From contig CAWANH010000029.1 of assembly GCA_963783375.1 (NCBI GenBank), forward strand, positions 1,280,001 to 1,344,000: 64,000 nt of DNA. Direction: 5' to 3'. The notes below the pieces were generated by a model, which made no database searches, was not told the DNA's origin, and saw only the letters and a program-made list of their open reading frames with translations. This stretch comes from Candidatus Eiseniibacteriota bacterium (GTDB lineage: Bacteria; Eisenbacteria; RBG-16-71-46; JABDJR01). This document shows, in pieces, positions 7,901 through 50,307 of this stretch. A program made the position numbers and the translations under genes. Position 1 is the stretch's first letter, and the number at the start of each line of letters is the position of its first letter.

Positions 7901-8294
7901 CCAGGCTGGCCCCGATCAGCTCCACCCCCAGCCGTTCGAGAACCCCTTGTTCCGCGAGCTGGACCGCCACGTTCAGCGCGGTCTGCCCGCCCAGGGTCGG
8001 AAGCAGCGCGTCCACCCGCTCCTTCTCCAGGATCTTCGCCACCACGTCGGGGGTGATCGGCTCCAGGTAGGTCCGGTCGGCCACCTCGGGGTCGGTCATG
8101 ATGGTGGCCGGGTTCGAGTTCACCAGCACCACCCGGTAGCCCTCGTCCTTCAGCACCCGGCAGGCCTGGGTCCCGGAGTAGTCGAACTCGCAGGCCTGCC
8201 CGATCACGATGGGGCCGGAGCCGAGGATGAGGAGGGTGGTCGGGCCCGGCTTCCCGTCGCGACGGTGTACCCGGGTACTCGCTTGACTCGTCAC
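4956..8294 (-). CDS. carB: Carbamoyl-phosphate synthase large subunit
   Basis: [61 protein letters not shown] and a C-terminal MGS domain. Confidence 0.98.
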
Positions 8295-35187: not shown

Positions 35188-35612
35188 GATCCGGTGCTCC
35201 CGTGCGAGTTTTCCGCCCCACCCCGGTCCCGTTGCCAGAGCCAGTGGGGGGAGTTCGAGGTCCGGCCCCGGAGCCATGCGTCCACCGAGACCGCGATCAG
35301 GACCGCGGTCAGGTCGGTGAGCCAATCTCCCAGACTCTTGTCGCGACCCACCGTCCCCTGAAAGGTCTCGTCCAGGGCGGCGATCCCCGCGCCCATGATC
35401 ACCGCCAACGCCATCCGGAGCCCGGCCCGGCGATTCTGGAGGGTGCGCCCCCACGCCCGGGCCAGGAGTCCTCCCAGGAGGGCGTACTCCATGAAGTGGG
35501 CCACCTTGTCGGCGTTGACCACGTGACCGGGAGGCGCCAGGGTCGGGATCGACGACAGGGTGAAGATGAGGGCGGCGTAGGTCGCCACCGGCAGCCATGC
35601 GCTCAGACTCAA
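35184..35612 (-). CDS. VanZ family membrane protein
   Basis: IFTLSSIP, DKVAHFMEY, DETFQ, GR..S..D. TTG start overlaps the ptsN stop. Confidence 0.85.
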   Translation of the reverse strand: MSLSAWLPVATYAALIFTLSSIPTLAPPGHVVNADKVAHFMEYALLGGLLARAWGRTLQNRRAGLRMALAVIMGAGIAALDETFQGTVGRDKSLGDWLTDLTAVLIAVSVDAWLRGRTSNSPHWLWQRDRGGAENSHGSTGS

Positions 35613-36103
35613 CCCGTAATCCGCTCTTCCTCGTGTCGAATGCAGGCCATGGCCTCGGCCGGAGTGCGCGCGCGCAGGAGGTTCCGCTGGAGATCTCCCG
35701 AGTAGAGAAGCCGGCTGATCCGGGCCAACACCCGGATGAACCCACCCCGTTCTTCGGGTCCCGCGACCAGGAACACGAGCTGGACCGGACGCTCGTCCAG
35801 CGCGTCGAAGTCGATGGGCCGGACCAGGCGGCCCAACGCCAGGGAGAGCCGGGTGGCTCCCGGGCTCTGGGCGTGGGGAACGGCGATTCCCCCCCCGATG
35901 CCGGTGCTCATGACCCGCTCGCGCTGCTGGATGTCGGCGACCATGCGCGAGGCGTCGGTGACCGCTCCCGCCTCCACCAGCGCCTCGACCAAAGCGTCGA
36001 TGACGGCATCCTTGGTGGACGCCGCCACATCCAGCCGCACGCACGACTCGTCGAGGATCTCGGTGAGCAGGGTCGTCCCTTTCGAATGAAAACGGCCTCG
36101 CAT
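35609..36103 (-). CDS. PTS EIIA component (Ntr/fructose type)
   Basis: RERVMSTGIGGGIAVPHA and IDFDALDERPV. Start uncertain. Confidence 0.9.
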   Translation of the reverse strand: MRGRFHSKGTTLLTEILDESCVRLDVAASTKDAVIDALVEALVEAGAVTDASRMVADIQQRERVMSTGIGGGIAVPHAQSPGATRLSLALGRLVRPIDFDALDERPVQLVFLVAGPEERGGFIRVLARISRLLYSGDLQRNLLRARTPAEAMACIRHEEERITG

Positions 36104-36191
36104 CGGGCCCACGGGCCGCGAGGGCTCTGGGTGATCCGACGGCGACGCCGAACGCCGGAACGGTAATGCGCGCAATCGGTTTCTCCGATGA

Positions 36192-36301: not shown

Positions 36302-36970
36302 TCATCTCCGATACACGAAGCTCATCTCGAACCACGCCTCCACCGGCTCGCCCCCGCGTCGCGCCGGGACGAAACGCATGGCCCGGGCCGATCGTTCGAG
36401 GGCCTCACGGAGGGGAGCGGGGAGATCGGGTTTCCGGGGCACGACCTCGGCCACCCGGCCCCGGCGATCCACCCGCAGCCGCACCGAGATCTCGAGCGGC
36501 GAGGGGAGCCCCTCGGACTCCTCGGGGGTCAGGGGCAATGCTCCGGCCAGAAGCTTGGGGGGTCGATACCGGAGCGCGCCCGGCGCGCCGCTCCGGGGGG
36601 CCGTCGCCGCCGGCGATCCCGCCGCCGGTTCCGAGGCCCCGGCGCTACCCGCCCCCGTCGCCGCCGGCGTCCGGGCAGGATTCTCGGAGGGGGCCTCGGC
36701 CGGGGGCGGATCCTGGATGGGCGGGGCGGCCACCGCCGGAGCCGGCGGGGGGGCCTCGACCGGTTCCGGGCGCGGCGGCCCCGCCACGGCCGCCGGTCCC
36801 CACGGCACCAGCGATACCGTCAACGGACCTTCGAGGTGGCTCCCCGCCCGACCCGGCTCCTCCCGGGGAGTCAGCCCTTCCCACCAGCTGCCGGGCGCCA
36901 GGACCAGCGCGACGTGGAAGAGCACGGAGGCGGCCGCGGTCCGGGCCAGAACCCGGTTCTCGCCGCTCAT
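36302..36970 (-). CDS. TonB-like energy transducer
   Basis: N-terminal TM with SxxxH (SVLFH), Pro/Ala-rich linker, and a TonB_C-like end (VRLRVDRRGRV...FVPARRGGEPVEAW). Confidence 0.75.
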   Translation of the reverse strand: MSGENRVLARTAAASVLFHVALVLAPGSWWEGLTPREEPGRAGSHLEGPLTVSLVPWGPAAVAGPPRPEPVEAPPPAPAVAAPPIQDPPPAEAPSENPARTPAATGAGSAGASEPAAGSPAATAPRSGAPGALRYRPPKLLAGALPLTPEESEGLPSPLEISVRLRVDRRGRVAEVVPRKPDLPAPLREALERSARAMRFVPARRGGEPVEAWFEMSFVYRR

Positions 36971-38958
36971 CGCGCCCGCGCCCGTTCCAGGACGGTGAAG
37001 GGGCCGGAGCGCCCGGCGGCGCGTCCCCCCAGGAGATCCTCGACCTCCACCCGGAGAACGTAGCCACCGGGATCGAGAGGCGGCAGGTCCACCGAGAGGA
37101 GCTGGGACAGGTTCGGCCCCGGGCCCGAGTCCTCGAACACCAGCTCACCCTCCGGGCTCGACCCCCCGAAGGGAAGGAGGACGTGGAACCAGCCACGGGC
37201 GGTCTGCCGTCCGACGGTGACCCGGATCCGGACCGAGTGGTCCCCGTTCCCGTCCTGCTTCAGCCCGTAGGTTTCGAAGCCGATCCCGATCGGGCGGTCC
37301 CCCCGGTAGACGTGCCCGGGATTGGGAAGGGCGCTGCCGTAGGCCCAGGGATACCCCCCGTCCCCGGGATCGAACCCCACCTTGCTGAAGAAGGCGAGGT
37401 CGCTCAGGCTCGGGCGGGCGCGGGCGGTGTCCGGCGGGAGGGCCGCGTAGAGGTCGGACCGCCCCGCCTCCTGCCGATCGAGGGTCTCCATGCCCACGAT
37501 GAGGCTCTCGGGGAGCGCGTCGAGCCGGAAGAGACCGATGAGCCGTCCCAGGTCGTCCTTCTGGAACAGGGCCCAGCTTCCCACCGCCGCGTCGCGACGC
37601 GTCCAGGTCGAGTCGTAGAGGGCGATCCGGGTGGCCAGCCGGTAGGGCGCGTCCAGGACCCCGCCCGGCCAATCCTCGGGTGAGAGCGCCGCCGCCACCT
37701 CGATCCGCCCCCGACCGGTGGCCGGGTCGAGGAAACGCCAGATCTCGATCTCCTGGTCCCGCTCGGGCGACGGGAAGGGCGGCCGGTAAGTGGACGGGTA
37801 CTGGGCGGCGAAGAGGTCCAGGTTCGATGGGCTCCCGGAGATCGGCGGGAGAAACCGTCCGTTCAGGTTGTAGTCCAGGAAGGTGAAGAGGATCGTTCCG
37901 CCGTCCTGGCCGTAGCGAACGTCGATGGAGGGAACGGCCAGCCATGAGTTCACGCGACAGTCGGGGCCGCGCCGGACGTCGGCGAGGTAGCTCCAGTCCG
38001 AGGGAATGCCGTAGCGCACCAGCATCTCGCCCGGCGCGACGTCCCAGCCCGGGATCCCGGACGACTCCTGTCCGAACAGGAGCTCGGCCAGCACCATGCG
38101 CCGGTAATGATCGAGGAGCCGGGGGTTCTCCCGGTCGGCGGGAGTGGGGTCGCGCCAGCGCCAGTAGTCCCGCCAGTAGCGAAGGGTGTCGGCGGATGCC
38201 TCCCGTTCTTCTTCCGCCCGGGGGTCGACCGCGGCCAGGCTGATGAAGGGTTTTCGCTCCGTCTCGCTCATCAGGGCGAAAGCGGCGGCGTAGGCCCGGC
38301 GGGCCCGGGTCCAGGCGCCGGCCCGGGTGAAGAGCATGCCCCGGACCAGATGGGGCCACGCGCTTTCCGGCGCCGCGTCCCTCATCCGGGCGCAAAGGGA
38401 ATCCAGCGCGCCGTCCCTTCCCTGGATCGCGGCGATCCGCATCTCCCGCCTGAGGGTGGTGGTATCGCCGGGGTCGATGGCCAGGGCCCGCCCGTTCTCC
38501 CGCGCCGCATCGGCAAGGAAGCTCAGGCGGTGGAACTGCTCGAAGCGCCGAAGTTCATGCCCGGCCAGCTCGCCTCGAACGTCCGCCCGATTCGGGGCCA
38601 GCGCGATGGCCCGGCGGTAAGCGAGCCGGGCCTCGCGTCGGTATTTCCGGCGTTCCTGGAGCCTTGCCAGCTGCAGCCAGGTGTCGGGATCGCGATCGTC
38701 GATGAGAACAGCCTGATCGAGGAGCTCGGCCGCCTCCCGGCGGTTCTCCACGTCGTCGCTCGCCCCCAGGATGCGGGCAAGAGTGCGTCGCGCTTCCAGG
38801 TTCCGCCGATCGGCCCGGACCTCCCTCCGCAGTTCGTCGACGTGGGCGGTGGAGTCGGCCGGGGCCGCGTGGGAAGCGGGAGGAAAGGAGAGGTGAAGAA
38901 GTCCAACCAGGAGCGCTACGGCAACCCGCACGGGGCCGGTATGCCGTGGAGTGCGCAC
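36967..38958 (-). CDS. Secreted TPR + GWxTD-like domain protein
   Basis: Signal peptide ending ASHA; TPR-like helices; YWRWRDPTP...HYRRMVLAELLF...GWDVAPGEMLVRYGIP; C-terminal Ig-like PGGYVLRVEVED. Start approximate (38958 or 38931). Confidence 0.8.
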   Translation of the reverse strand: MRTPRHTGPVRVAVALLVGLLHLSFPPASHAAPADSTAHVDELRREVRADRRNLEARRTLARILGASDDVENRREAAELLDQAVLIDDRDPDTWLQLARLQERRKYRREARLAYRRAIALAPNRADVRGELAGHELRRFEQFHRLSFLADAARENGRALAIDPGDTTTLRREMRIAAIQGRDGALDSLCARMRDAAPESAWPHLVRGMLFTRAGAWTRARRAYAAAFALMSETERKPFISLAAVDPRAEEEREASADTLRYWRDYWRWRDPTPADRENPRLLDHYRRMVLAELLFGQESSGIPGWDVAPGEMLVRYGIPSDWSYLADVRRGPDCRVNSWLAVPSIDVRYGQDGGTILFTFLDYNLNGRFLPPISGSPSNLDLFAAQYPSTYRPPFPSPERDQEIEIWRFLDPATGRGRIEVAAALSPEDWPGGVLDAPYRLATRIALYDSTWTRRDAAVGSWALFQKDDLGRLIGLFRLDALPESLIVGMETLDRQEAGRSDLYAALPPDTARARPSLSDLAFFSKVGFDPGDGGYPWAYGSALPNPGHVYRGDRPIGIGFETYGLKQDGNGDHSVRIRVTVGRQTARGWFHVLLPFGGSSPEGELVFEDSGPGPNLSQLLSVDLPPLDPGGYVLRVEVEDLLGGRAAGRSGPFTVLERARAR

Positions 38959-38966
38959 CGCCGAGC

Positions 38967-41900
38967 TTACACGCGCGGGACCGGCCGGATGCCGTAGCGG
39001 GTTATCTTGTTCTTCAGGCCCTTGCGGCTCAATCCCAGTTCCTGAGCGGCCCGGGTCTTGTTCCAGGCGTGCTTCTTCAGCGCATCCACCACCAGCCGCC
39101 GCTCCACGTCCTCCACCGAGGCCCGGAGATCGTTCTCCCCGTGGTCCAGGACGGAGCCGCGGGCACTGTCGGTGGCGGAAAGGATCTCGCGGGGAAGGAG
39201 GTCCAGGCTGATGGACTCGTCGTCCTCGGCCAGGATGGCCGCCCGGCGAACCGCCTTTTCCAGCTCGCGAACGTTTCCCGGCCACTGGAAGCGCACCAGT
39301 CTCTGCATCGCGGTGCGGTTGAACCCGCTGATGGACCGCGAGGTCTGGGCGTTGAAGGTCTCCAGGAAGTACTCGGCCAGAAGCGGGATGTCCTCGGGAC
39401 GCTCCCGGAGGGCGGGGACCCGGATGATGATGTCGTTCAACCGGTAGTAGAGATCCTTGAGGAAGGGTTCCTCGTCCTGGTTCAGGAGATCCTTCTTGCT
39501 GGTGGCGCAGATCACCCGGACGTTGAGCTTCCGATAGCTGTTGGAGCCGACCGGCCGCACCTCGCCCTCGTCGAGAAGGTGGAGCAGCCGCCGCTGGACC
39601 CCGAGACCCGACTTGCCGATCTCGTCCAGGAAAATGGTTCCACCGTCCGCCTCCTCGAAGAGCCCCTTCTTGTCGTGGCTGGCCCCGGTGAAGGCCCCCT
39701 TGGTGTAGCCGAAGAGTTCGGACTCCAGGAGGTTCTCGGGAAGCGCGGCGCAATCCACGGTCACGAACGACCCCTCGGCCCGGTCGCTGGACAGGTGGAT
39801 GGCCCGGGCGATCAGGGTTTTCCCCGTCCCGGTCTCCCCCTGGAGCAACACGGTGAGATTGGTGCGATTCACCTTCTCCACCAGCTTCAGGATCTCGACC
39901 ATTTCCTGGTTCTGGGTGACCACGTCGGCAAGGAAGGTGCGGCGGCGAAGGCTGTCCTCCTCGGTGGGGATGATCGTCGCCTCCAGGGAGGCGCGATCCA
40001 CCAGGGCCTCGAGCTGGGAGGTGAGAGCCAGGCAAAGGTTCAGATGACTCGGCCCGAAAGAGGACCGGCGCCCCTCCTCCAGTCGATCGAGATACAGGTA
40101 GGCCGCCTCGCCGTTCCCGTAGATCGGAATGACCATGAAGGAGGACATCCGGCGGGTCTCGACGAGGCCGGTCCACGGCTTACGGACCGTGGTGGCGGCG
40201 TCGAGCACGATCTCCGGCCGCTCGGGCCGGAGCTGGGTCAGGGTAGCGACCAGCCGCTGGCTGATGGCCGACCCGATGCGATAGGTGGTCGTGGGAACCG
40301 GACCGTTGGTGAAGACAAGGCCGGCTCCGTCCGCTTCCACCGCCTGGGCCATGATCCCGAGCACGGCGTCCAGCTTGGCCTGGTAGGGGCGGCGGGATTC
40401 CACCACCTCTTCGAGCCGGCCCGCGGTGCGGAAGGCGCCGAGGTTGGTGACCGAGGTATCCACGAGCCGGGTCTCCAACTCGTTCTGAACCTGGGCCAGG
40501 AGCTTGACCAGGGAGGGGTCGGCGACCACATCCATGCCGCTCCGCGCCGCCTCGAGGTATTCCCCCGCCCGATCGAGGTCCCCGCGGCGGCTGGCCGCCC
40601 CCGCCAGCATGATCGAGCACTCCACCTCCAGATCCCGGAGACCGAGAGCCTTGAAACCCTGGCGGGCCTCGCCGAGGGCGACCTCGGCCCGAGCCAGATC
40701 CTTACCGCCGTGAAGCCGCAGGCGGCCTTCTTCCATCAGGGTGTGGGCCAGCGGGAAGGGGCTCCCCAGCCGGCGGAGCAGGTCCTGGGCCTCGGCGATC
40801 AGTTCGTAGCCCGAGGCCTCGCCCTGGGCCAGAAGCACCCGCCCGTGGGTCAGCTTGGCCAGGGCGGATTCCATGCGATCCCCCACCCGCACCGAAAGCT
40901 CCTCGGCGCGGCGGGCCAGACCGGCGGCGTCCGCCGGCTTGCCGTCGACCAGATCGAGGTCGGCGCGAAGCCGGAGAAGCTCCCGCACGAGATCGCCCTC
41001 GGGGGAGATCTCCATCGCCTTGCGCCAGGCCACCTCGAAGCAGCGACGGGACCGGGCCAGATCGCCGCGAGCCTGGTGAAGCTGTCCCAACGATCGGTAG
41101 GTGAGCGCGGTCTCGCGCGGATACTGCTCCTCCGAGCAGAGCTCCAGGGACTGTTCGAGGGATTCCAGGGCGTGATCCCAGCGCCGCTCGATCAGGTCCA
41201 CTCCGGCCGTTCCCACCAGGGCGCGGATCGTGCCCAGGGGATCGTTCACCGCGCGGCAAAGCTTGAGCGATTCGGAGAAGCACTCGCGGGCGCGCTCCCA
41301 GTGTCCCATCTTGAAGTGGACGATACCCAGGTTGTGGAGCCCGCCGGCATGCCGCTCGGGGTACTCCCCCTCGATGGCCTGGAGGCTGGAGGAGACCTGG
41401 AGATACTCCAGGGCCCGCCGCCAGTCGCACTTCTCCTTGTAGATCAACCCGAGGTTGTTGTAGGCGAGAGAGAGGCTGCGGATGTCCCCCGCGCCCTTGA
41501 AGGCGGAAAGTGCCTGCTCGAAACAACGCGCGCTCTCTCCCAGATCGCCCTTGCGGTTGTGCGCGGAGCCGAGGAGGTTCAGCGCGAACCCGCGGGAGGA
41601 CGGATCGGTCTTGGGATCGATAAGCTTCATGGCGTCGGCGCCGCAACGAAGCGCGGTGTCGATAGCGCCCTGTCCTAGGTGGATCTTCCCCAGCTTGATG
41701 AGGACGCGACCCAGCTCAGGTTCGTCCTCCGCCGCCCGCGCGGCGGCGGCGGCGTCCTCGAGGACGTTGAGCGCTTCCTTCCACCGGCCGATTCGCTCCA
41801 GACAGCTCCCGATCCCCTTCAATGCCCGGGCCTTCTGGGATGCGCTGACGTCCGCGTCCAGGGCCCGACGGTACGTCCGTACCGCGGACTCGTAGTTGGC

Positions 41901-42008
41901 GGCGGCCTGTTCCAGGTCGGCCACGCTCAACATCTCCTCCGCAGTCTGGAGCTTCTGAGCCTCGGCACTCACTCCCGGTGAGGCGCTTTTCTGGGCTCGA
42001 TCAGCCAT
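38967..42008 (-). CDS. Sigma54-dependent enhancer-binding protein (TPR - GAF-like - AAA+ - Fis HTH)
   Basis: Multiple TPRs (AYNNLGLIY, LHNLGIVH), GETGTGKT, ESELFG..KGAFTGA, FLDEIG, WPGNVREL, and HTH NKTRAAQELGLSR. Confidence 0.95.
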   Translation of the reverse strand: MADRAQKSASPGVSAEAQKLQTAEEMLSVADLEQAAANYESAVRTYRRALDADVSASQKARALKGIGSCLERIGRWKEALNVLEDAAAAARAAEDEPELGRVLIKLGKIHLGQGAIDTALRCGADAMKLIDPKTDPSSRGFALNLLGSAHNRKGDLGESARCFEQALSAFKGAGDIRSLSLAYNNLGLIYKEKCDWRRALEYLQVSSSLQAIEGEYPERHAGGLHNLGIVHFKMGHWERARECFSESLKLCRAVNDPLGTIRALVGTAGVDLIERRWDHALESLEQSLELCSEEQYPRETALTYRSLGQLHQARGDLARSRRCFEVAWRKAMEISPEGDLVRELLRLRADLDLVDGKPADAAGLARRAEELSVRVGDRMESALAKLTHGRVLLAQGEASGYELIAEAQDLLRRLGSPFPLAHTLMEEGRLRLHGGKDLARAEVALGEARQGFKALGLRDLEVECSIMLAGAASRRGDLDRAGEYLEAARSGMDVVADPSLVKLLAQVQNELETRLVDTSVTNLGAFRTAGRLEEVVESRRPYQAKLDAVLGIMAQAVEADGAGLVFTNGPVPTTTYRIGSAISQRLVATLTQLRPERPEIVLDAATTVRKPWTGLVETRRMSSFMVIPIYGNGEAAYLYLDRLEEGRRSSFGPSHLNLCLALTSQLEALVDRASLEATIIPTEEDSLRRRTFLADVVTQNQEMVEILKLVEKVNRTNLTVLLQGETGTGKTLIARAIHLSSDRAEGSFVTVDCAALPENLLESELFGYTKGAFTGASHDKKGLFEEADGGTIFLDEIGKSGLGVQRRLLHLLDEGEVRPVGSNSYRKLNVRVICATSKKDLLNQDEEPFLKDLYYRLNDIIIRVPALRERPEDIPLLAEYFLETFNAQTSRSISGFNRTAMQRLVRFQWPGNVRELEKAVRRAAILAEDDESISLDLLPREILSATDSARGSVLDHGENDLRASVEDVERRLVVDALKKHAWNKTRAAQELGLSRKGLKNKITRYGIRPVPRV

Positions 42009-42045
42009 AACTCCAACCCTCCGTGCTTAACCCGCGGCCGGGGGC

Positions 42046-42408
42046 CTAACGGACGTGGTAACCAAAGATGCGAGTACCGAAGACCGCGAGCAGCCAACCG
42101 ATCAGCTGTCCGAAGGGACTGCCGGGGACCGTCGGAGGCGCTGGGGGGTTGATTCTGCCGAACCCCACGCCGAACTGGCCGTCGATCTGGAACGTGTCGG
42201 GATCTGCATCGAGGCCGCCGGAATCGCCCGTCCCACCGTGGTCGCCGGTGGGCCCGGGAGGATTCTGTCCCACCAGGAACTCCCCCATGGGGCCGGGGTC
42301 GTTGTCGTTGGCCTGGACGGCGGGAACGGCAGGCAGCAACACCCACAACACGAGTGCCGTCGCCACCGCGAGGAGGGCGGGCCCGTGGGATGTGTGATTG
42401 CGTTTCAT
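42046..42408 (-). CDS. Small secreted Gly/Pro/Asp-rich protein (candidate signalling-peptide precursor)
   Basis: GAGG RBS; signal peptide MKRN...PAVQA; low-complexity middle with DADPDTFQI; hydrophobic C-terminus; 120 aa. Confidence 0.75.
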   Translation of the reverse strand: MKRNHTSHGPALLAVATALVLWVLLPAVPAVQANDNDPGPMGEFLVGQNPPGPTGDHGGTGDSGGLDADPDTFQIDGQFGVGFGRINPPAPPTVPGSPFGQLIGWLLAVFGTRIFGYHVR

Positions 42409-42460
42409 TGCGTCACCTCGCTCATCGGGTGTACATGGAAACCTTGTCACCATTACCAAA

Positions 42461-42476
42461 CGCACGTCCCATGCCA
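42461..42476 (-). promoter_or_regulatory. Putative sigma54 promoter (proximal)
   Basis: TGGCATGGGACGTGCG has GG-N10-GC spacing and lies about 53 nt upstream of the ATG at 42408. Confidence 0.65.
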
Positions 42477-42511
42477 TCCCACACGATTCCGTCCCGAATT
42501 CCCAAACACCG

Positions 42512-42654
42512 TAACTGTTTGAAAACTTGGGAGGTAGCCGGCAGGTTCCTCCCGGAGCCTCCGATTCTCTGAACGACAGTATAGCCGCCCCACCGGCTCG
42601 CCGCTACCCACCTGAAGGCGGATTTGAACTAACCTATTGAAATACAACAAGTTA
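42512..42654. promoter_or_regulatory. IHF-like sites in an AT-rich control region
   Basis: Minus-strand TTTCAAACAGTTA (42512-42524) and TTTCAATAGGTTA (42630-42642), each one mismatch from WATCAANNNNTTR; plus-strand ATACAACAAGTTA (42642-42654). Confidence 0.55.
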
Positions 42655-42691
42655 AATATGGTAACCAAGTACCCACCCCAGGGCCGGATTG

Positions 42692-42707
42692 TGCAACCGC
42701 ATTGCCA
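42692..42707 (-). promoter_or_regulatory. Putative sigma54 promoter (distal)
   Basis: TGGCAATGCGGTTGCA, a near-perfect match to TGGCAC-N5-TTGCW. Confidence 0.7.
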
Positions 42708-42973
42708 GGCCTGACGTCGGGGGCGAGCCCCGGTCCCCGGCTTTCACGATCGCTTTCACATTGACCTAAATCGTTGTGTTTGCTATGATTTGCCTGCTTT
42801 ACTCCCACTGCCACGCCCGGTCCGATCGTCGAGAAAAATCGCCCAGGACCGGTCGGCGACCAGTCTGAAGGCGAAGGCGGCCACGAGCAGGCCGGCATCC
42901 AGGGCAACCGCATCTTGAGACGCAACAGGCTCGACCTGCCCCCCCCGGCCGGAGCAGGCGTGGACCGGGGAGC

Positions 42974-44347
42974 ATGAAACAGCGCGCCATTCCCTTCCGA
43001 GAGCTGCTGCAGCAGGTCCTTCCCCTGGACCGGCTGCCGGCGGCGGACCGCGCCCGTGTGGAAGCAGCCATCCGGGAAGGGGATCCGCGCACCCTGGAGG
43101 CGCTGGCCTTCGAGCTCCTCGACCGCCTCGTCGACCTCGGCCATCTCCGCCTGGTGGAGGAGGTGCTCCGGGGGGATGAGAAGATCCGCCGCTACCGGGA
43201 TCTCACCACCGGCAACACCATCGCCCTGAGGCTCCCGGTGGGCGACGAGGACGAGGGGATCCACAAGATCCCGCTCCCGCTCCGGGACTGGAAGGGGGCG
43301 GCGTCCCTCGACCAGATCCGCACTCTCTTCAACCTGTACAACAAGATCCTGACCCAGGACTCCCATCTCCTTCGCGGGCCCAGGGACATCCTGCGCCAGG
43401 TCATGCTCACCGTGCGACAGATCCTCGGGTGCGAGCGCGTCACCTTCTGGATGGCGGGAAAGAGCCCTGAGGGAGGCCTCCCCCTGGAGAACCTGAACGG
43501 GGAGCCCTACGACCCGGATCTGGCCCGGGAATGGGTGCTCACCCGGCGCTACCTGGTGGTCCTTCCCGAGCTTCCCGCCCAGATCGACCCCAGCACCGGA
43601 CGTCTGGAAACCGACTTTCACTCCCTGGCCATGATCCCGGTGGGTGAATCCGATCAGGCGGTCTACGGGGTCCTCCACGCCTGGAGCGTCCATTCCCACT
43701 TCTTCGACGAGGATCGCCAGGGACTGATGAGCCTGCTCTCGGAGTTCGCCACCGACCTCCTCCGCCGCTCCGAGATCCTGGGCAACCTGGTGTTCGTCGA
43801 CGCCTCGACCCAGGTCTACAACCGGGCCTACTTCAACCTCCAGCTCGACAACGAGATCGCCCGCGCCCGCCGGGATTCGAAGCCGCTGGCCCTGGCCATC
43901 GTGGACATCGACGACTTCAAGTCCTTCAACAGCCGCTACGGCTACGAAGGGGGGAACCAGGTCCTGGCCAACACCGCCCAGGTCCTGAAGAACGGCCTCC
44001 GCCCCTTCGATTCGGTGGCCCGCTGGGGCGGGGAGGAGTTCGCGCTCATCCTGACCCCGCCGGTCACCCCGGAGGATGCCCTGGCGGTGTGCGAGCGACT
44101 GCGCCGGGCGACCGAACTCTCCCACTTCAGCATTACCGGGCTCGAGGGCCAGTCGGTGGCCAGTCGCATCACGGTGAGCATCGGAGGCGCGGTCTACCCG
44201 CAGGACGGCGCCTCGGCGGGTTCGCTGTGGAGGGCGGCCAACGCGGCTCTCGTCCACGCCAAGCGCACCGGCAAGAACCGGGTCGTGTTCGCCTCGGACC
44301 TCCCCCCGGACGCCGAAGCGGGCCCGGAGCGCGAGCGGCGCGGCTAG
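42974..44347 (+). CDS. GAF-like + GGDEF diguanylate cyclase
   Basis: DASTQVYNR, DIDDFKSFN, I-site RPFD and ARWGGEEF. Confidence 0.92.
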   Translation: MKQRAIPFRELLQQVLPLDRLPAADRARVEAAIREGDPRTLEALAFELLDRLVDLGHLRLVEEVLRGDEKIRRYRDLTTGNTIALRLPVGDEDEGIHKIPLPLRDWKGAASLDQIRTLFNLYNKILTQDSHLLRGPRDILRQVMLTVRQILGCERVTFWMAGKSPEGGLPLENLNGEPYDPDLAREWVLTRRYLVVLPELPAQIDPSTGRLETDFHSLAMIPVGESDQAVYGVLHAWSVHSHFFDEDRQGLMSLLSEFATDLLRRSEILGNLVFVDASTQVYNRAYFNLQLDNEIARARRDSKPLALAIVDIDDFKSFNSRYGYEGGNQVLANTAQVLKNGLRPFDSVARWGGEEFALILTPPVTPEDALAVCERLRRATELSHFSITGLEGQSVASRITVSIGGAVYPQDGASAGSLWRAANAALVHAKRTGKNRVVFASDLPPDAEAGPERERRG

Positions 44348-45026: not shown

Positions 45027-48000
45027 TCAGCGAGCCACCGCCACCCGCTCCAAGTGCTTGATTTCTTTTCCGTTACCGCCGTGGGCGTCGAACATGAGCA
45101 GGTACACGCCGTTGGCCACCCGGTCCCCCCCTTCGTCGCGGAGGTCCCAGGCGAAGGCGTTGGTCCCGGCGAGGGAGGGTACCGGGGTCCTGAGAACCCG
45201 CCGGCCGGCCACGGTGTAGATGGTCACCCGGGCGTCCCGGGCGCTTTGATTCAGGGTGTAGACGAACCGGCCCCCTCCCCCGTCGGCCGGGTTGGGGTAG
45301 AAGAACGAGTTCAGGAGGTCGAACCCCTCTCCGGAGACCTGGAACTTGACCGATCGGGTCACCGCGCCCCCCACCTCGTCGGTCACCCGAAGCTCGGCGG
45401 CATGCAGGCCGGAGCCCCAGGTACGCTGGAGATCCAGCGTCCACTGCCTTCCCTCGGCGTCGAGCTTGGTCATGACGGGCTCGACGGAGGCCCCGTCTAC
45501 CACCAGGGCGATGGCCCCCTGGGCGAGGGGCACCGGGCTGGTAATCCGGGCCTGGATGACCGCGGTGGAGTCCACCAGGTCGGCTCCGGAGGAGCTTAGC
45601 TTCTTCCCGTCCGCGCTGAACTCGGTCTGGAACTGAACGGGGAGGGTGAATCGACTGATTCGCCCGGACCAGTCGGTGGCCTCGATGGCCACGTCGTAGG
45701 TGCCCAACCGCAGCGCGGTCTTGAACTGGACCTGGTAGGTCTGGGCCCCCTCCGCCCCGGCGTCCGGAGGCACCACCGTCACCCGGCCCGGCGGGACCTC
45801 GGTTTCCCCCTCGGTGACCCGAATCGTGGAGACGTCCACGTCGTCCGAGATCGCCGCGGACACCAGGATCGAATCCTGGAAGGAAGCGGCGGCGAGGGGA
45901 GTGCCGTCGGCCACCTGGGAGCCGTTCACCTCGACCCGGAGGTCGGCGGCGGCGATGTCCACCAAGAGAGCGGGATCTCCCAGGGTCACGTAGGTGCGGA
46001 GCATCTCCGCCCAGTGGGAGGTCATCCCGTGCTCCAGCGCGTTGGCCACGAAGGCGCGGGTCATGCAATCGCCCAGGATCCGCCGCGGACGGCCGGTGGC
46101 CGGGTCCCGGGGAAGGTCCCAGAACAGGGCCCGCGTGGTGTACGACTGGGCGTCGGGATTGGTGAGCAGCAGTTCGTAGGCGGTCGAGGCCACGGTGGCC
46201 ACCGCGCCCCGGTTGGGGGCCAGGAGCAGGGACTCCCCGATTGATTCTCCCCCCACTCCCCCGTTGGACCCCTCGTTCGCGTTCTCGAATTCGGCCAGGT
46301 GGCAGGCGTAGCCGAAGAAGAGGAACGGTTTGCCCAGGTTGTTGATCCGGTCCACGTCCCGCACCGAGAGCCGGGGATAGTTCTGGAACGTGGTCTCGGT
46401 GGTGATGATGTTGCGGTTGGCGTGTCCGGTGAACTCCCACACCAGACTCCCCCGGCTCACCTGGTCGACCAGGGCCGGGGTGACGTGGGACCGAACCCAG
46501 GGAATGGTCTCGGTCAGAAGACTCTTGCCGTCACGGCTGGGGCAATTGCCCACGATCCCGGGACGGCGGCCGAGAGACGCGACGGTGTCCACGTAGGCGT
46601 TCAGATAGAACGGGACGCACTGGAAGTCCATGAGCCCGCTTCGACCGGGGATGGAATCGCACATCGCCTCGGTGGTGGACCGGAAGACGACCTCGTCCGG
46701 CTTCCAGCAGTACCCCGAGTTGAAGGTGATGCTGGTCGAGTACTGGTCGTCGGCGAAGAAGACGCCGCGTTTCCGCCAGTCGTCGGTGGGTTGGGCGTTC
46801 TCGAAGGCGAGGATCTTCTCCACCATCCGGTTCACCTCGTCCACGCTTCCCACCGGGAGCCGGCCCACGTGCATCTCCGGGAGCACGTCCAGCTCGTCGT
46901 CCCCGGGGCGGAGCGCCGCCACGTACCAGTTGTCGGTCCCGGCCAGCTCCCGCCCTCCGGGGCCGGGCACGTGGCCGAAGTGCATCATGGTCGGCACCCA
47001 GTCCGGATCCGAAGTGGCCAGATCGTGCCGGTAGTCCTCGCTGGCGTCGCCGCCCAGCATGAGGTAGCTCGGGGCGGGGTCCCAGTTGCGGTAGGCCTGG
47101 GTGAGGAAGCGCCGGATGGCCCAGGGGGTCTTGTCGCCTCCCGAAAACTCGTCGTACACCTCCAGCACGTCGCAGAGGAGCACCTGGTGCCCCTGGGATT
47201 CCCGGTGCTGGACGAGCGGGGCCCAGGCGTCCCGGAACCCGGGTTGGGTCAGGAGCACGTAGTCGCTTCCCCGACCGGCGACCAGGAGGTCGCGGGTGAG
47301 CCCGGAGGCGATGGCCGTGGTGCCGAGATCGGGGGGCAGCGGATGCTCCGAGGGCGGAAGTCCGGTGATCCGGCTGGGGTCGAGGGCCACGAACGTGCGC
47401 CGGCTCCCGGTTCCCACGATCCGGATGGTGGCCGCATATCCGCCCTCCGAGGCCTCGACGTGGGGGGTGAGCCATACCGGGTTGGCCGGGTCGGTGATCT
47501 CCAGGACCTTGACGTCGGGGGTGGTGAACCCGGTCACCCGGAACTCGAGATTCCCGGTCAGGGACCAGTTGTTGAACACCAGCCGGTCGTCGTGGGCGCG
47601 GAGGAGCCGGCTGTAGTTCAGGTCGAACCAGTCGAATTCCGACCCGCTCAGGTTGGTGGAGAACGGCGTCCGGCCCAGGATGTGAACCTGATTCGTGCCG
47701 TCCACCAGACACCCGTTGATGGGCCGCGCGCCCGAATGCCAGGTGAACGTCTCCTGCTTCTTGAAGTGATAGTCCTCGAGGAGGGCGCAGTTGTTCATCT
47801 TGAAGGACACGACGTGGGTGTCCGCGGGGGCCACGGTGTAGACCCCCTGCCAGAGGGCATCCACCTGGAACATCCCGGCCGGGTCGGGGTCGTGGAGAAC
47901 GATGGACACGGTCTCGTTCACCTGGCGGGGATCGAACCAGTAGAGGGCGGACTTGGCCGGGTAGATCGAATTCCCGTCCTGGGGGGGATTGTTGAGGTAG

Positions 48001-49214
48001 TTCAGGTCCTTCTCGTAGTGCGTGTCCTGGGGGAACGAGGTGACCGGGGTCCATTCCCCATCCGCCGGATAGCCGTCCGCGCTCGGGATGTCCCGCCCCC
48101 CTTCATCCGACGCGGTAACCCAGTAGGTATGGAAGTACGAGTAGCGGCCGTCGGTGGGCTGGGGATGGAAACGATCCCGGTAGTTGAACCCGTAGAACTC
48201 CAGGAAGTCGCCGTCGTCGAACACCCCGTTGCCATTGGCGTCATCGATCGCCCGGGGAAGGTTGGTCACCAGGAACGGGTTGGCGCGGTTGGAGTCGTAG
48301 CCCCGTTCCTCCACCCGCACCCTGCCTACCGCCTGGTCCGCGGGGAATCCTTCCGAGGCCAGGTCGGCGTAGGGGATGCGGCTGAATCCGGTGGCGCCGA
48401 AACGAACCCGAACGAACGGCTGACCCTCGGGAAAGGCGCGGGGAACGCTCTGGGGCGCGGCCTGGGTCCGAAACCCGCCGGCCGAGGCCCCGTTCACCAG
48501 GACCTTGTCCTGGAGCTCCTCCCAGCCCGGAGCATCGGGGCCGGCGGGAACCGTCCGCACCACGCCCGGCTTGGCGCTCGGCGCCTCGCCGCGGCGATCG
48601 AAGGAGACCGTGACCTCGATCTGGGTGGCCACCCGGTATTCACCGGTGGCCGGGATCACCTGGACCGGGCTCACCGACACCACCGAGACCCGCTGGTGCC
48701 GCCAGCCCGCGGTCGGGCCCAGCTCGGCCACCTCGGGCGGGAACCAGCCGGCGGACCGGTAGACGGCAGGATCGGGGGTGTAGGTGTCCACCTCGGTGGG
48801 AAACGGATCGCCGTAGACGAACCGGGACCGGGGGACGGGAACCGGGGCCGACCCGTGAAAGGCGGTGCTGGCGATCACCCGGGTGGAAATCCGGGCGACG
48901 GCGCCCTCGGGGAGCGCAAACGGGAAACCGCGGCGGGGCAGGTTCGGGAGTCCGGCGTCCTCGCCACCCCGTCCGCCGTAGCCGGGGATCGTCACCGAGA
49001 GGTAGGTTCCCCCTTCCGGGAGGTCCACCGGCGCGGTGGTGGGCGGGGGCACGGTGACGCGGAGAGTGAAGCCGTCGGGGCCCTGGCGGGTCAGCTCCGA
49101 CCGTCCCGAGGTCGCAGGAGCGGGCGGAGCCGGAGCCTCGGCGGCCGGGACCGCGGCGGCGAAGACCATGAGGGCCACGGCCGATAACACGAACGAGGGC
49201 ATAGCCAGACGCAT
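45027..49214 (-). CDS. C25 (gingipain) family peptidase, PorU-like, with propeptide and C-terminal FlgD-Ig domain
   Basis: Signal peptide; C25 propeptide-like region; VYDEFSGG, YLMLGGDAS, MHVGRLP, FTGH and YACH (His/Cys dyad), LGDPAL; C-terminal YPNP...WDLRDEGGDRVANGVY. Confidence 0.88.
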   Translation of the reverse strand: MRLAMPSFVLSAVALMVFAAAVPAAEAPAPPAPATSGRSELTRQGPDGFTLRVTVPPPTTAPVDLPEGGTYLSVTIPGYGGRGGEDAGLPNLPRRGFPFALPEGAVARISTRVIASTAFHGSAPVPVPRSRFVYGDPFPTEVDTYTPDPAVYRSAGWFPPEVAELGPTAGWRHQRVSVVSVSPVQVIPATGEYRVATQIEVTVSFDRRGEAPSAKPGVVRTVPAGPDAPGWEELQDKVLVNGASAGGFRTQAAPQSVPRAFPEGQPFVRVRFGATGFSRIPYADLASEGFPADQAVGRVRVEERGYDSNRANPFLVTNLPRAIDDANGNGVFDDGDFLEFYGFNYRDRFHPQPTDGRYSYFHTYWVTASDEGGRDIPSADGYPADGEWTPVTSFPQDTHYEKDLNYLNNPPQDGNSIYPAKSALYWFDPRQVNETVSIVLHDPDPAGMFQVDALWQGVYTVAPADTHVVSFKMNNCALLEDYHFKKQETFTWHSGARPINGCLVDGTNQVHILGRTPFSTNLSGSEFDWFDLNYSRLLRAHDDRLVFNNWSLTGNLEFRVTGFTTPDVKVLEITDPANPVWLTPHVEASEGGYAATIRIVGTGSRRTFVALDPSRITGLPPSEHPLPPDLGTTAIASGLTRDLLVAGRGSDYVLLTQPGFRDAWAPLVQHRESQGHQVLLCDVLEVYDEFSGGDKTPWAIRRFLTQAYRNWDPAPSYLMLGGDASEDYRHDLATSDPDWVPTMMHFGHVPGPGGRELAGTDNWYVAALRPGDDELDVLPEMHVGRLPVGSVDEVNRMVEKILAFENAQPTDDWRKRGVFFADDQYSTSITFNSGYCWKPDEVVFRSTTEAMCDSIPGRSGLMDFQCVPFYLNAYVDTVASLGRRPGIVGNCPSRDGKSLLTETIPWVRSHVTPALVDQVSRGSLVWEFTGHANRNIITTETTFQNYPRLSVRDVDRINNLGKPFLFFGYACHLAEFENANEGSNGGVGGESIGESLLLAPNRGAVATVASTAYELLLTNPDAQSYTTRALFWDLPRDPATGRPRRILGDCMTRAFVANALEHGMTSHWAEMLRTYVTLGDPALLVDIAAADLRVEVNGSQVADGTPLAAASFQDSILVSAAISDDVDVSTIRVTEGETEVPPGRVTVVPPDAGAEGAQTYQVQFKTALRLGTYDVAIEATDWSGRISRFTLPVQFQTEFSADGKKLSSSGADLVDSTAVIQARITSPVPLAQGAIALVVDGASVEPVMTKLDAEGRQWTLDLQRTWGSGLHAAELRVTDEVGGAVTRSVKFQVSGEGFDLLNSFFYPNPADGGGGRFVYTLNQSARDARVTIYTVAGRRVLRTPVPSLAGTNAFAWDLRDEGGDRVANGVYLLMFDAHGGNGKEIKHLERVAVAR

Positions 49215-49380
49215 CCTTGGGCTTCCTCCCTGGGGTCCTGGGGCGTCGAAAAGAGTCGAAATCTTACACCCTGGGGCCGGTCCCGGGTTCCCGGGGTTGG
49301 GGGCGGGCTGGGCTGCGGCTTGACCCGGCCCTCCGGCCCTGGTAGCGTCTCGAATCCGCATCTGGGGAAACCACAGCGAC

Positions 49381-50307
49381 ATGGCCGAAACCGTCACCAC
49401 CTCCCCCGCCCGGTCCCGCCTGGGGCTGTACTGGGAACTCGCCCGCCCCTTCACCCTCCTCGCTCCCGCCCTCGGGATGCTCTCGGGAGGCATCGCCGGC
49501 GTCGGGGCGCGCCCGCCCCTTCCCCTCGGGCCGACCCTGTTCCTGAACCTGGCTCTCGGCACCCTCATGGCCGCGTCCCTGAACGCCGCCTCGAACACCC
49601 TGAACCAGATCTACGATCTCGAGGTGGATCGGGTCAACAAGCCGCGCCGTCCCCTGCCCAGCGGGCGGGTCTCGATCGCCGAGACGGGGGCGCTGACCCT
49701 GGTCCTCTTCATCTTCGCCCTCCTCCTGGCCTGGCTGGTGGACATCCAGTGCTTCATCCTCGCGTCGGCGGCCGCGATCCTCACCACCGCCTACTCCGTC
49801 CCCCCCCTGCGCACCAAGGCCCGGGGCGTCTGGGCCAACGTCACCATCGCCATCCCCCGGGGACTCCTCCTCAAGGTGGCCGGCTGGTCGTGCGTGCGCA
49901 CGGTGATCGCGCCGGAGCCGTGGTTCATCGGGATGATCTTCGGGCTCTTCCTCCTCGGGGCCAGCTCCACCAAGGACTTCGCCGACATCGCGGGCGACCG
50001 GGCGGGAGGGTGCCGGACCCTGCCCATCATCTACGGGGTCCGCCGCGCGGCCTGGATGATCGCCCCCTTCTTCGTCCTTCCCTTCCTCCTGATGCCGCTG
50101 GGCTCGATCCTTGGGATTCTCACCGGCAACCGGGCCGCCCTGACGTTTCTGGGCATCGGTCTCGCGGCGTGGGGAAGCTACGTGGTCTACCTGATCCTCC
50201 GCGACCCCGACGCGCTGGCCACCACCGAGAACCACCCGTCGTGGACCCACATGTACCTGATGATGCTCGCCGCCCAGATCGGGTTCGCGGTGGCCTACAT
50301 CCTGTGA
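49381..50307 (+). CDS. UbiA-family prenyltransferase (chlorophyll synthase / DGGGP synthase-like)
   Basis: ARPFTLL, NQIYDLEVDRVNKPRRPLPSG, YSVPPLRTK and KDFADIAGD. Confidence 0.9.
   Translation: MAETVTTSPARSRLGLYWELARPFTLLAPALGMLSGGIAGVGARPPLPLGPTLFLNLALGTLMAASLNAASNTLNQIYDLEVDRVNKPRRPLPSGRVSIAETGALTLVLFIFALLLAWLVDIQCFILASAAAILTTAYSVPPLRTKARGVWANVTIAIPRGLLLKVAGWSCVRTVIAPEPWFIGMIFGLFLLGASSTKDFADIAGDRAGGCRTLPIIYGVRRAAWMIAPFFVLPFLLMPLGSILGILTGNRAALTFLGIGLAAWGSYVVYLILRDPDALATTENHPSWTHMYLMMLAAQIGFAVAYIL

Follow-up and report, generated by a model that had tools for sequence, protein, structure and literature searches.

Organization of the Locus

A four-gene operon that may encode a peptide-type regulatory circuit was analyzed in a 64,000-nucleotide stretch of DNA from Candidatus Eisenbacteria (contig CAWANH010000029.1), referred to here as the window, whose coordinates are used for the operon. 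The operon begins with a small protein with a signal-peptide-like N-terminus (the precursor), followed by a sigma-54 activator with an array of tetratricopeptide repeats (TPRs), a GWxTD protein, and a TonB-like protein. The open reading frames (ORFs) are:

42046-42408, minus strand: precursor ORF, 120 amino acids (aa)
38967-42008, minus strand: activator ORF, 1013 aa; about 12 TPR hairpins (residues 15-520), GAF-like segment, AAA+ domain with GAFTGA, Fis-type helix-turn-helix (HTH; SRKGLKNKI class)
36967-38958, minus strand: GWxTD ORF, 663 aa, GTG start; predicted exported TPR plus GWxTD-domain protein
36302-36970, minus strand: TonB-like ORF, 222 aa; N-terminal hydrophobic anchor, Pro-rich linker, weak TonB_C

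The precursor and activator genes are separated by 37 nt and the activator and GWxTD genes by 8 nt, while the GWxTD and TonB-like genes overlap at an ATGA. A preliminary description of this DNA had interpreted the region as a signaling circuit of four linked minus-strand genes, and the lengths, gaps, and ATGA overlap that it gave all match the ORF coordinates. Two of its labels held in part. The GWxTD protein scored 32.7 bits against TIGR04514 (cut-off, 28), but its literal motif is GWDVA; the TonB-like protein has the anchor and the Pro-rich linker, but its TonB_C score of 17.8 bits is under the cut-off of 24.6. A GAF-like segment in the activator, a palindromic enhancer, and a probable non-coding RNA output, all described below, were absent from that description. 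The host genome encodes RpoN, Omp85 proteins, seven matches to family-5 (peptide-type) solute-binding proteins, one POT transporter, and two matches to TonB-dependent receptors. This gene content supports a host with an outer membrane, RpoN, and peptide importers.

Conservation of the Precursor-Activator Pair

A profile of the N-terminal 690 residues of the activator matched 205 of the 206 genomes of the phylum, partial TPR matches included. Loci for comparison were taken from 60 high-scoring places, 30 best-per-genome loci, and the loci of other relatives; the profile had 390 further matches beyond those listed. They amounted to 93 non-redundant loci, the window excluded, in which the activator has the architecture TPR-(GAF-like)-AAA; the shorter TPR activators (about 830 aa) of other Eisenbacteria fall outside this set. 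An ORF of 82-135 aa was located directly upstream of the activator in all 93 loci. A signal-peptide-like start was found in 92 of these ORFs, the remaining one (L182) being cut by the contig end, and a core of the form [GA]-[DE]-P/x-D was also found in 92. A script detected the upstream ORF with its hydrophobic start and core in 89 loci, and the other four were read by hand (cores GEPD in L134, GDSD in L148, GDPD in L182, and the variant GVPD in L177). No comparable upstream ORF was present beside the other activators of the window genome (0/23) or beside TPR loci of other phyla (0/53). The conservation of an adjacent small ORF, on which the preliminary description had made its proposal depend, was thus observed throughout the set. 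These comparisons indicated that the conserved unit is a two-gene pair, precursor and activator, rather than a group of four genes.

The window genome contains a second pair (L040:4380-7907, plus strand, corresponding to G000:C28:1470379-1473906). Its activator is 33% identical to that of the window and its precursor has two GDPDQY repeats; the HTH and the enhancer are different ones, and no GWxTD gene accompanies it. When Acidobacteriota were searched, partial TPR matches were obtained in 37 of 151 genomes and a full-length match in only one (L047). This locus is a 2.7-kb contig filed under Thermoanaerobaculia, the pair of which is nested within the Eisenbacteria clade, and it was possibly mis-binned or transferred. 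A search of 50%-identity representatives returned many matches that were general TPR arrays, and no range was obtained from it.

The Precursor and Its Acidic Core

The precursor consists of a signal-peptide-like N-terminus, a Gly/Pro/Asp-rich linker, an acidic core, and a Trp-containing C-terminal segment. It had no match in Pfam or NCBIfam, and an Atlas search returned only matches below 0.9, to Eisenbacteria clusters. The N-terminus, as read from the sequence, has a basic start, a hydrophobic stretch with a hydropathy of 2.33, and a small-residue cleavage-like site. The candidate ligand is:

42181-42207, minus strand: core motif ADPDTFQID, precursor residues 68-76

Across the precursors (family median, 107.5 aa), conservation is confined to the signal-like start, the core, and one C-terminal Trp; in a set of 11 relatives, D69, P70, and W105 are the columns that stay conserved. 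The strict core [GA][DE]PD is present in 63 of 90 precursors, and tandem duplications of the core occur in those of L040, L095-L097, L168, and L172. The loose motif was widened after the data had been seen, and in the genome background of small hydrophobic-start ORFs it was found in 168 of 2880 and the strict motif in 43 of 2880. The dN/dS values were 0.16-0.68 in 15 of 15 close precursor pairs of the family. As judged from these substitution rates, the precursor is a real protein under purifying selection. N-terminal hydropathy exceeded 1.6 in 87 of 90 precursors. The C-terminal segment was above 1.6 in only 11 of 90, which ruled it out as a transmembrane anchor for most, and its amphipathicity was barely higher than that of shuffled sequences (0.57 vs. 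0.52).

The Activator

The activator matched TPR families (Pfam TPR_12 and others), Sigma54_activat (PF00158, 204 bits), and HTH_8. Walker A is located at residue 724, GAFTGA at 771, and further AAA+ motifs (Walker B and sensor II) at 793 and 909. The Pfam families and motif positions confirmed the earlier account of a 1013-aa activator with a TPR array, a GAFTGA-bearing AAA+ domain, and an HTH. Across the 93 loci, the AAA+ loop reads GAFTGA in 78 and GSFTGA in 11. The usual finger motif of sigma-54 activators is RxDLxxRL. That of the window activator is FLKDLYYRL (residues about 849-857; window 39440-39470, minus strand), and the first arginine is replaced family-wide (Leu in 73, Ile in 8, and Ser in 1 of the 82 scored) with the second Arg kept. 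Judged by its domains and motifs, the protein is a sigma-54 enhancer-binding protein by all the features tested except the first finger arginine.

Residues of about 530-690 matched GAF clusters among Atlas features, from which we infer a GAF-like segment between the TPRs and the AAA+ domain; the GAF family is absent among the 25 Pfam matches listed for the window proteins. There was no receiver domain among the families listed for the activator. No transmembrane segment was found, in keeping with a cytoplasmic location. An AlphaFold model of residues 1-540 (pLDDT 92.6) has 26 helices, and its nearest folds are the TPR arrays of LGN/Pins, TONSOKU, and OGT type, with peptide-bound LGN/Pins among the closest solved structures. 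Such arrays have a peptide groove lined by the Asn of their NLG motif. The near-invariant polar residues R152, N184, N185, K191, and N226 lie on three alternate helices (8, 10, and 12), and a second, acidic conserved set is found further along the TPRs (E299, D339, E343, D377, and E380). The basic/Asn receptor patch, the acidic four-residue core, and the obligate pairing suggest direct binding, and on this model the core is likely to bind the activator TPR domain directly.

Promoter, Enhancer, and Probable Autoactivation

The region upstream of the precursor gene contains the following features:

42659-42675, minus strand: palindromic enhancer (upstream activating sequence), TGG(A/T)TAC-N3/4-GTA(T/C)CCA, situated some 200 nt before the sigma-54 promoter; putative activator site
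42594-42610, minus strand: second, weaker enhancer-like half site; GGGTAG block conserved in the family alignment, weak
42630-42642 and 42512-42524, minus strand: two IHF-like AT-rich sites between enhancer and promoter
42462-42476, minus strand: sigma-54 (-24/-12) promoter, TGGCAT-N5-GTGC, of the four-gene operon
42693-42707, minus strand: second sigma-54-like motif, recurring among 15 clade loci only in that of the closest relative (1 of 15)

The preliminary description had listed two sigma-54 motifs. The one at 42462-42476 stood: it was kept in 15 of 15 window-clade loci, 66-131 nt before the precursor start. The other, at 42693-42707, did not fare as well and is probably non-functional. 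The enhancer palindrome was recovered de novo in all 14 clade loci having 300 nt upstream. When 37 genomic sigma-54-like sites were scanned with the window-clade matrix, the operon enhancer was the best (29.8 bits), followed by two other promoters, and none of 400 random 260-nt windows reached 12 bits. The IHF-like sites match a relaxed consensus for IHF binding, and TAAC..TT blocks are found at both places in the family alignment. The conserved sigma-54 promoter and its cognate enhancer make autoactivation likely, i.e., the activator would drive its own operon.

In the sister clade, a different palindrome, of the CTATAAA-N5-TTTATAG type, was found before a promoter located 3' of the activator in 40 of 62 loci searched. 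The two palindromes pair with two recognition helices, SRKGLKNKI in the window clade and SYPTLLxKI in the sister clade, both at about -200. A sigma-54 promoter was found upstream in 10 of 16 SRKGLK-class loci and in 0 of 53 SYPTL-class loci. Five SRKGLK-type loci (L109, L139, L169, L174, and L180) have no matching upstream sigma-54 motif, and three retain the palindrome.

In another five loci (L108, L110, L114, L141, and L147), a second sigma-54 promoter is located downstream of the activator, before a conserved lipoprotein gene (cluster of 49 loci). One or two predicted secreted proteins with CxxCH motifs, which are possible heme c sites, follow. A 187-aa predicted secreted protein without a Pfam match is encoded elsewhere in the window genome (L217:7141-7704, minus strand, corresponding to G000:C28:1011140-1011703). 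Its sigma-54 promoter was kept in 6 of 6 relatives and the window-clade enhancer was present in the window genome and 2 of 6 relatives, which hints weakly at a third activator target.

Probable RNA Outputs

Two structured RNAs that have not been cataloged came to light in this analysis, RNA-B and RNA-A:

L218:6462-6895, corresponding to G000:C28 about 1072460-1072893, minus strand: RNA-B, about 430 nt, unlinked, structured, with sigma-54 promoter and window-clade enhancer
42011-42022, minus strand: activator ribosome-binding region GGAGGGTTGGAG, nine bases of which are complementary to an invariant C-rich stretch of RNA-B
L040 about 8134-8260, corresponding to G000:C28:1474133 onward, plus strand (L040); also L101-L152: RNA-A, sigma-54 promoter, GGAGG-GGGGA-CCTCC hairpin, long stem

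The RNA-B promoter site (G000:C28:1072919, minus strand) is followed by about 430 nt with no conserved ORF and a terminator at the end. A DNA match was obtained in 8 of 9 relatives; a sigma-54 promoter is present at 9 of 9 RNA-B loci, together with one or more enhancers at all of them and with two at 6 of 9. A 23-mer of RNA-B was found in 9 of 206 genomes, all from families f1 and f2. Predicted pairs changed on both sides were 28 of 89 among 8 sequences, a count made without a relatedness control. RNA-B had no match in Rfam, and it is not RNase P, the RNA of which lies at another place in the genome. Beyond the RNA-B terminator there is a bona fide TonB gene (71.8 bits). From the promoter and enhancers, we infer that RNA-B is a conserved output driven by the activator.

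The invariant RNA-B stretch CUCCAACCC is complementary to GGGTTGGAG in the activator ribosome-binding region. The sequence GGGTTGG precedes the activator start in the window and in 7 of 8 family-level loci, in 0 of 2 sister-family loci, and in 1 of 74 loci of other clades, and the complement between RNA-B and the activator leader is 8-10 bp in family f1 and weak in f2. These matches weakly suggest that RNA-B pairs with the activator ribosome-binding site as negative feedback. Several observations weigh against it. By duplex energy, the activator start ranked only 389 of 3526 starts; most of the C-rich stretch is base-paired when a single sequence is folded, and the duplex drops to about -11 kcal/mol in two sister-family (f2) genomes. 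No compensatory change was found between RNA-B and the activator leader. Five of 5 family f12 genomes that share the operon gave no RNA-B match; in this family GGGTTGG is in the precursor leader instead (4 of 5 loci). RNA feedback on the circuit is put forward as possible but somewhat doubtful.

RNA-A lies directly 3' of the sister-clade activator. A sigma-54 promoter with the GGAGG...CCTCC hairpin was found in 164 of 206 genomes (control, 0), and 8 of 16 pairs of the long stem are changed on both sides. RNA-A had no match in Rfam, and its covariance model scored the copy of the window genome weakly (E 0.43). No 6S match was found in the window genome, and RNA-A could conceivably be a divergent 6S RNA. 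The heptamer GGTCCCC, complementary to the RNA-A 5' end, occurs in 24 of 74 sister-clade precursor leaders and is their commonest 7-mer. The next gene after RNA-A in family f1 encodes an AAA ATPase.

The GWxTD and TonB-Like Genes

The GWxTD gene follows the activator in 9 of the 65 loci with at least 2.5 kb downstream, and the TonB-like gene likewise in 9 of 65. All activator-linked GWxTD cases belong to families f1, f2, and f12, with variable gene order. Nine GWxTD loci have neither an adjacent activator nor the promoter/enhancer, and the TonB-like gene accompanies GWxTD even in the absence of an adjacent activator (L030 and L031). An alignment of 16 GWxTD homologues showed conserved W, D, P, N, R, and G residues and neither HExxH nor any other recognized protease motif. 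Among the matches listed for the GWxTD protein there was no peptidase similarity; all were of TPR type, both in Pfam (19 families) and in the PDB (the 60 best of 220); folding without an alignment gave an unusable model (pLDDT 37). The presence of the GWxTD gene in only 9 of 65 loci points to clade-specific cargo and not to a processing step, and as far as gene neighborhoods tell, the GWxTD and TonB-like genes are operon cargo of one clade. The preliminary description had suggested checking whether a GWxTD gene is conserved downstream of activators and had raised the possibility that the two proteins process or import the peptide; neither was supported.

The window protein is above the curated cut-off for TIGR04514 GWxTD proteins but differs in the TPRs fused at its N-terminus and in the pairing of its gene with a TonB-like one. 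In the literature searched for "GWxTD", no paper using the term was found, and the pair gives GWxTD proteins a first regulatory context.

Proposed Mechanism and Alternative Explanations

Since a predicted export signal is present in the precursor but not in the activator, the core would either be clipped and re-imported or act before export. We propose that the precursor is exported and clipped, and that the acidic Asp-Pro-Asp core would re-enter the cytoplasm via Opp/POT-type carriers and bind the activator TPR groove, turning on sigma-54 transcription. The activator would then drive its own operon, a positive feedback loop in which the two envelope proteins (GWxTD and TonB-like) are cargo. 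It would also drive RNA-B, which in turn might pair with the activator ribosome-binding site and exert negative feedback. By analogy, this would be a peptide switch resembling RRNPP at the input and LuxO/Qrr at the output, in which export, clipping, import, and binding are proposed steps, and we regard it as about evenly poised between holding and failing. The preliminary description had also proposed an RRNPP-like loop; the paired and selected ORF, the short acidic core, the cytoplasmic activator with conserved Asn/Arg/Lys, and the sigma-54 promoter with enhancer agree with it, but membership in RRNPP does not stand. The wider proposition is that, in an outer-membrane phylum, peptide quorum sensing evolved apart from RRNPP, with a re-imported Asp-Pro-Asp peptide gating a TPR-fused activator and each paralogous circuit having its own operator and large structured feedback RNA. 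It is advanced tentatively, as an idea that has somewhat more chance of being wrong than right. Several facts count against a peptide signal. The core comprises only four strongly conserved residues and is near-identical (ADPD and GDPD) between the two paralogous pairs that one genome carries, which leaves little information for a kin-specific signal. The precursors, at 82-135 aa, exceed the validated RRNPP propeptides (21-50 aa, in the part of PMC10075063 consulted). The retained C-terminal segment has no role in the peptide-signal model, and the pair has no linked gene for a processing protease or an importer. A covariation of peptide and TPR sequences, suggested as a check by the preliminary description, could not be separated from descent: core-motif variants followed receptor clades (15 changes against 39 when shuffled), pointing to shared descent and not to co-evolution, and column associations were clade-confounded.

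Other explanations of the pair were considered. In secreted regulators such as FlgM and ExsE, export itself carries the information, and by the same logic the full-length precursor could bind the TPR domain in the cytoplasm when export is slowed, reporting the secretion or envelope state of one cell and not density. A short, low-information core kept phylum-wide and the lack of a linked protease or importer would fit such a monitor, as would the envelope targets (GWxTD and TonB-like proteins in the window; lipoproteins and predicted secreted proteins under a second sigma-54 promoter in the sister clade) and a conserved C-terminal segment whose hydrophobicity is in most cases insufficient to span a membrane (11/90 above 1.6). 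We consider it unlikely; against it, the N-termini resemble ordinary, strongly hydrophobic signal peptides (87/90), tandem core repeats better suit a released multi-copy signal, and no dedicated secretion system is linked. Another reading, rather improbable, has the precursor acting outside the cytoplasm, membrane-tethered or at the surface, with its Asp-Pro motif serving for cleavage or sorting; it would share no more than a transcript with the activator, whose TPR/GAF-like region would sense something else. In its favor, core-TPR binding is itself a prediction, TPR arrays of this type bind many partners, and the GAF-like segment could be a separate small-molecule input. However, the two genes stay linked in 93 of 93 loci, both paralogues of one genome included, despite changes in the promoters and in every other neighbor, and a conserved basic/Asn receptor patch faces an acidic conserved partner motif. 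The tight gaps, the conserved co-location in families f1, f2, and f12, and the two TonB-dependent receptor matches could be taken to mean that processing or re-import of the peptide is the task of the GWxTD and TonB-like proteins. We consider this version very improbable, given the 9 of 65 loci for each gene, a paralogous pair in the window genome that lacks both, the nine activator-free GWxTD loci with neither promoter nor enhancer, the variable order, and no peptidase similarity among the matches listed.

Comparison with Known Systems

Peptide switches of the RRNPP type are described, in the part of PMC10075063 consulted, as a Sec-secreted propeptide of 10-100 aa whose gene adjoins that of a 250-500 aa receptor with TPRs; duplications are known among RRNPP propeptides. 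The output is an N-terminal HTH or three-helix bundle, according to an excerpt of PMC9765709. The adjacent small precursor of putative Sec type, the cytoplasmic TPR protein, and the propeptide duplications recall RRNPP(A) systems (Rap-Phr, NprR-NprX, PlcR-PapR, and AimR-AimP), with which this system shares the TPR-bearing receptor and the adjacent genes (37-nt gap, 93/93 loci). It differs in propeptide size (120 aa), receptor size (1013 aa), and output domain (C-terminal AAA+/HTH_8 instead of N-terminal). These three defining features set the system outside RRNPP, and by its domain architecture it is not an RRNPP member. Unlike in RRNPP, the precursor is upstream and carries an internal acidic core and an extra C-terminal segment, and the host has an outer membrane. 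A Rap protein ranked 44th of 71 by profile among solved structures, and none was present in the 35 Foldseek matches listed.

The predicted output resembles LuxO-Qrr of Vibrio, where LuxO is a sigma-54 activator according to its NCBIfam description. The Qrr RNA depends on LuxO and represses its production by pairing with luxO mRNA (excerpt of PMC3262071); an activator-dependent RNA pairing with activator mRNA is a prediction here. In contrast to the phosphorelay input of LuxO, this activator has a TPR array and a co-encoded protein, with no receiver domain among the families listed, and RNA-B is about 430 nt with no Rfam match. RNA-A of the sister clade has the same arrangement as Nla19-Pxr of Myxococcus xanthus, in which a small RNA with its own sigma-54 promoter lies directly 3' of a sigma-54-dependent regulator (excerpt of PMC5568312), but Nla19 is a response regulator with no partner peptide, and the likeness of RNA-A to Pxr is one of arrangement, the Rfam scan having been blank.

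No system of this architecture was found in the titles and abstract starts of the literature on Eisenbacteria, on enhancer-binding proteins, TPRs, and RRNPP, or on RRNPP in diderms, in agreement with the preliminary description, which knew of none. The precursor-activator system is real, phylum-wide, and undescribed in the literature searched; its mechanism, drawn by analogy, is plausible. Intracellular peptide-TPR signaling has been described from Bacillota (excerpts of PMC9765709 and PMC10075063). If the proposal is true, sigma-54-wired peptide-TPR signaling behind an outer membrane would add a new mode of input to those of enhancer-binding proteins and would be a master switch of an uncultured lineage (205 of 206 phylum genomes). 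The parts are defined and testable (activator, enhancer, promoter, 9-residue core, and RNA) and could be rebuilt in E. coli.

Neighboring Genes

A divergent GAF-GGDEF gene (42974-44347, plus strand) with the active-site motif GGEEF shares a 560-nt intergenic region with the operon. A 1523-aa peptidase C25 (PorU/gingipain-like) protein with a C-terminal FlgD-Ig/T9SS-type tail is encoded 2 kb upstream of the operon (45027-49598, minus strand) and may conceivably have a link to precursor processing. On the other side lies a PTS EIIA gene (35609-36175, minus strand), with genes resembling aminoacyl-tRNA synthetases after it. An EIIA gene comes after the operon in 8 loci; one of these is L109, whose GWxTD gene is outside the operon.

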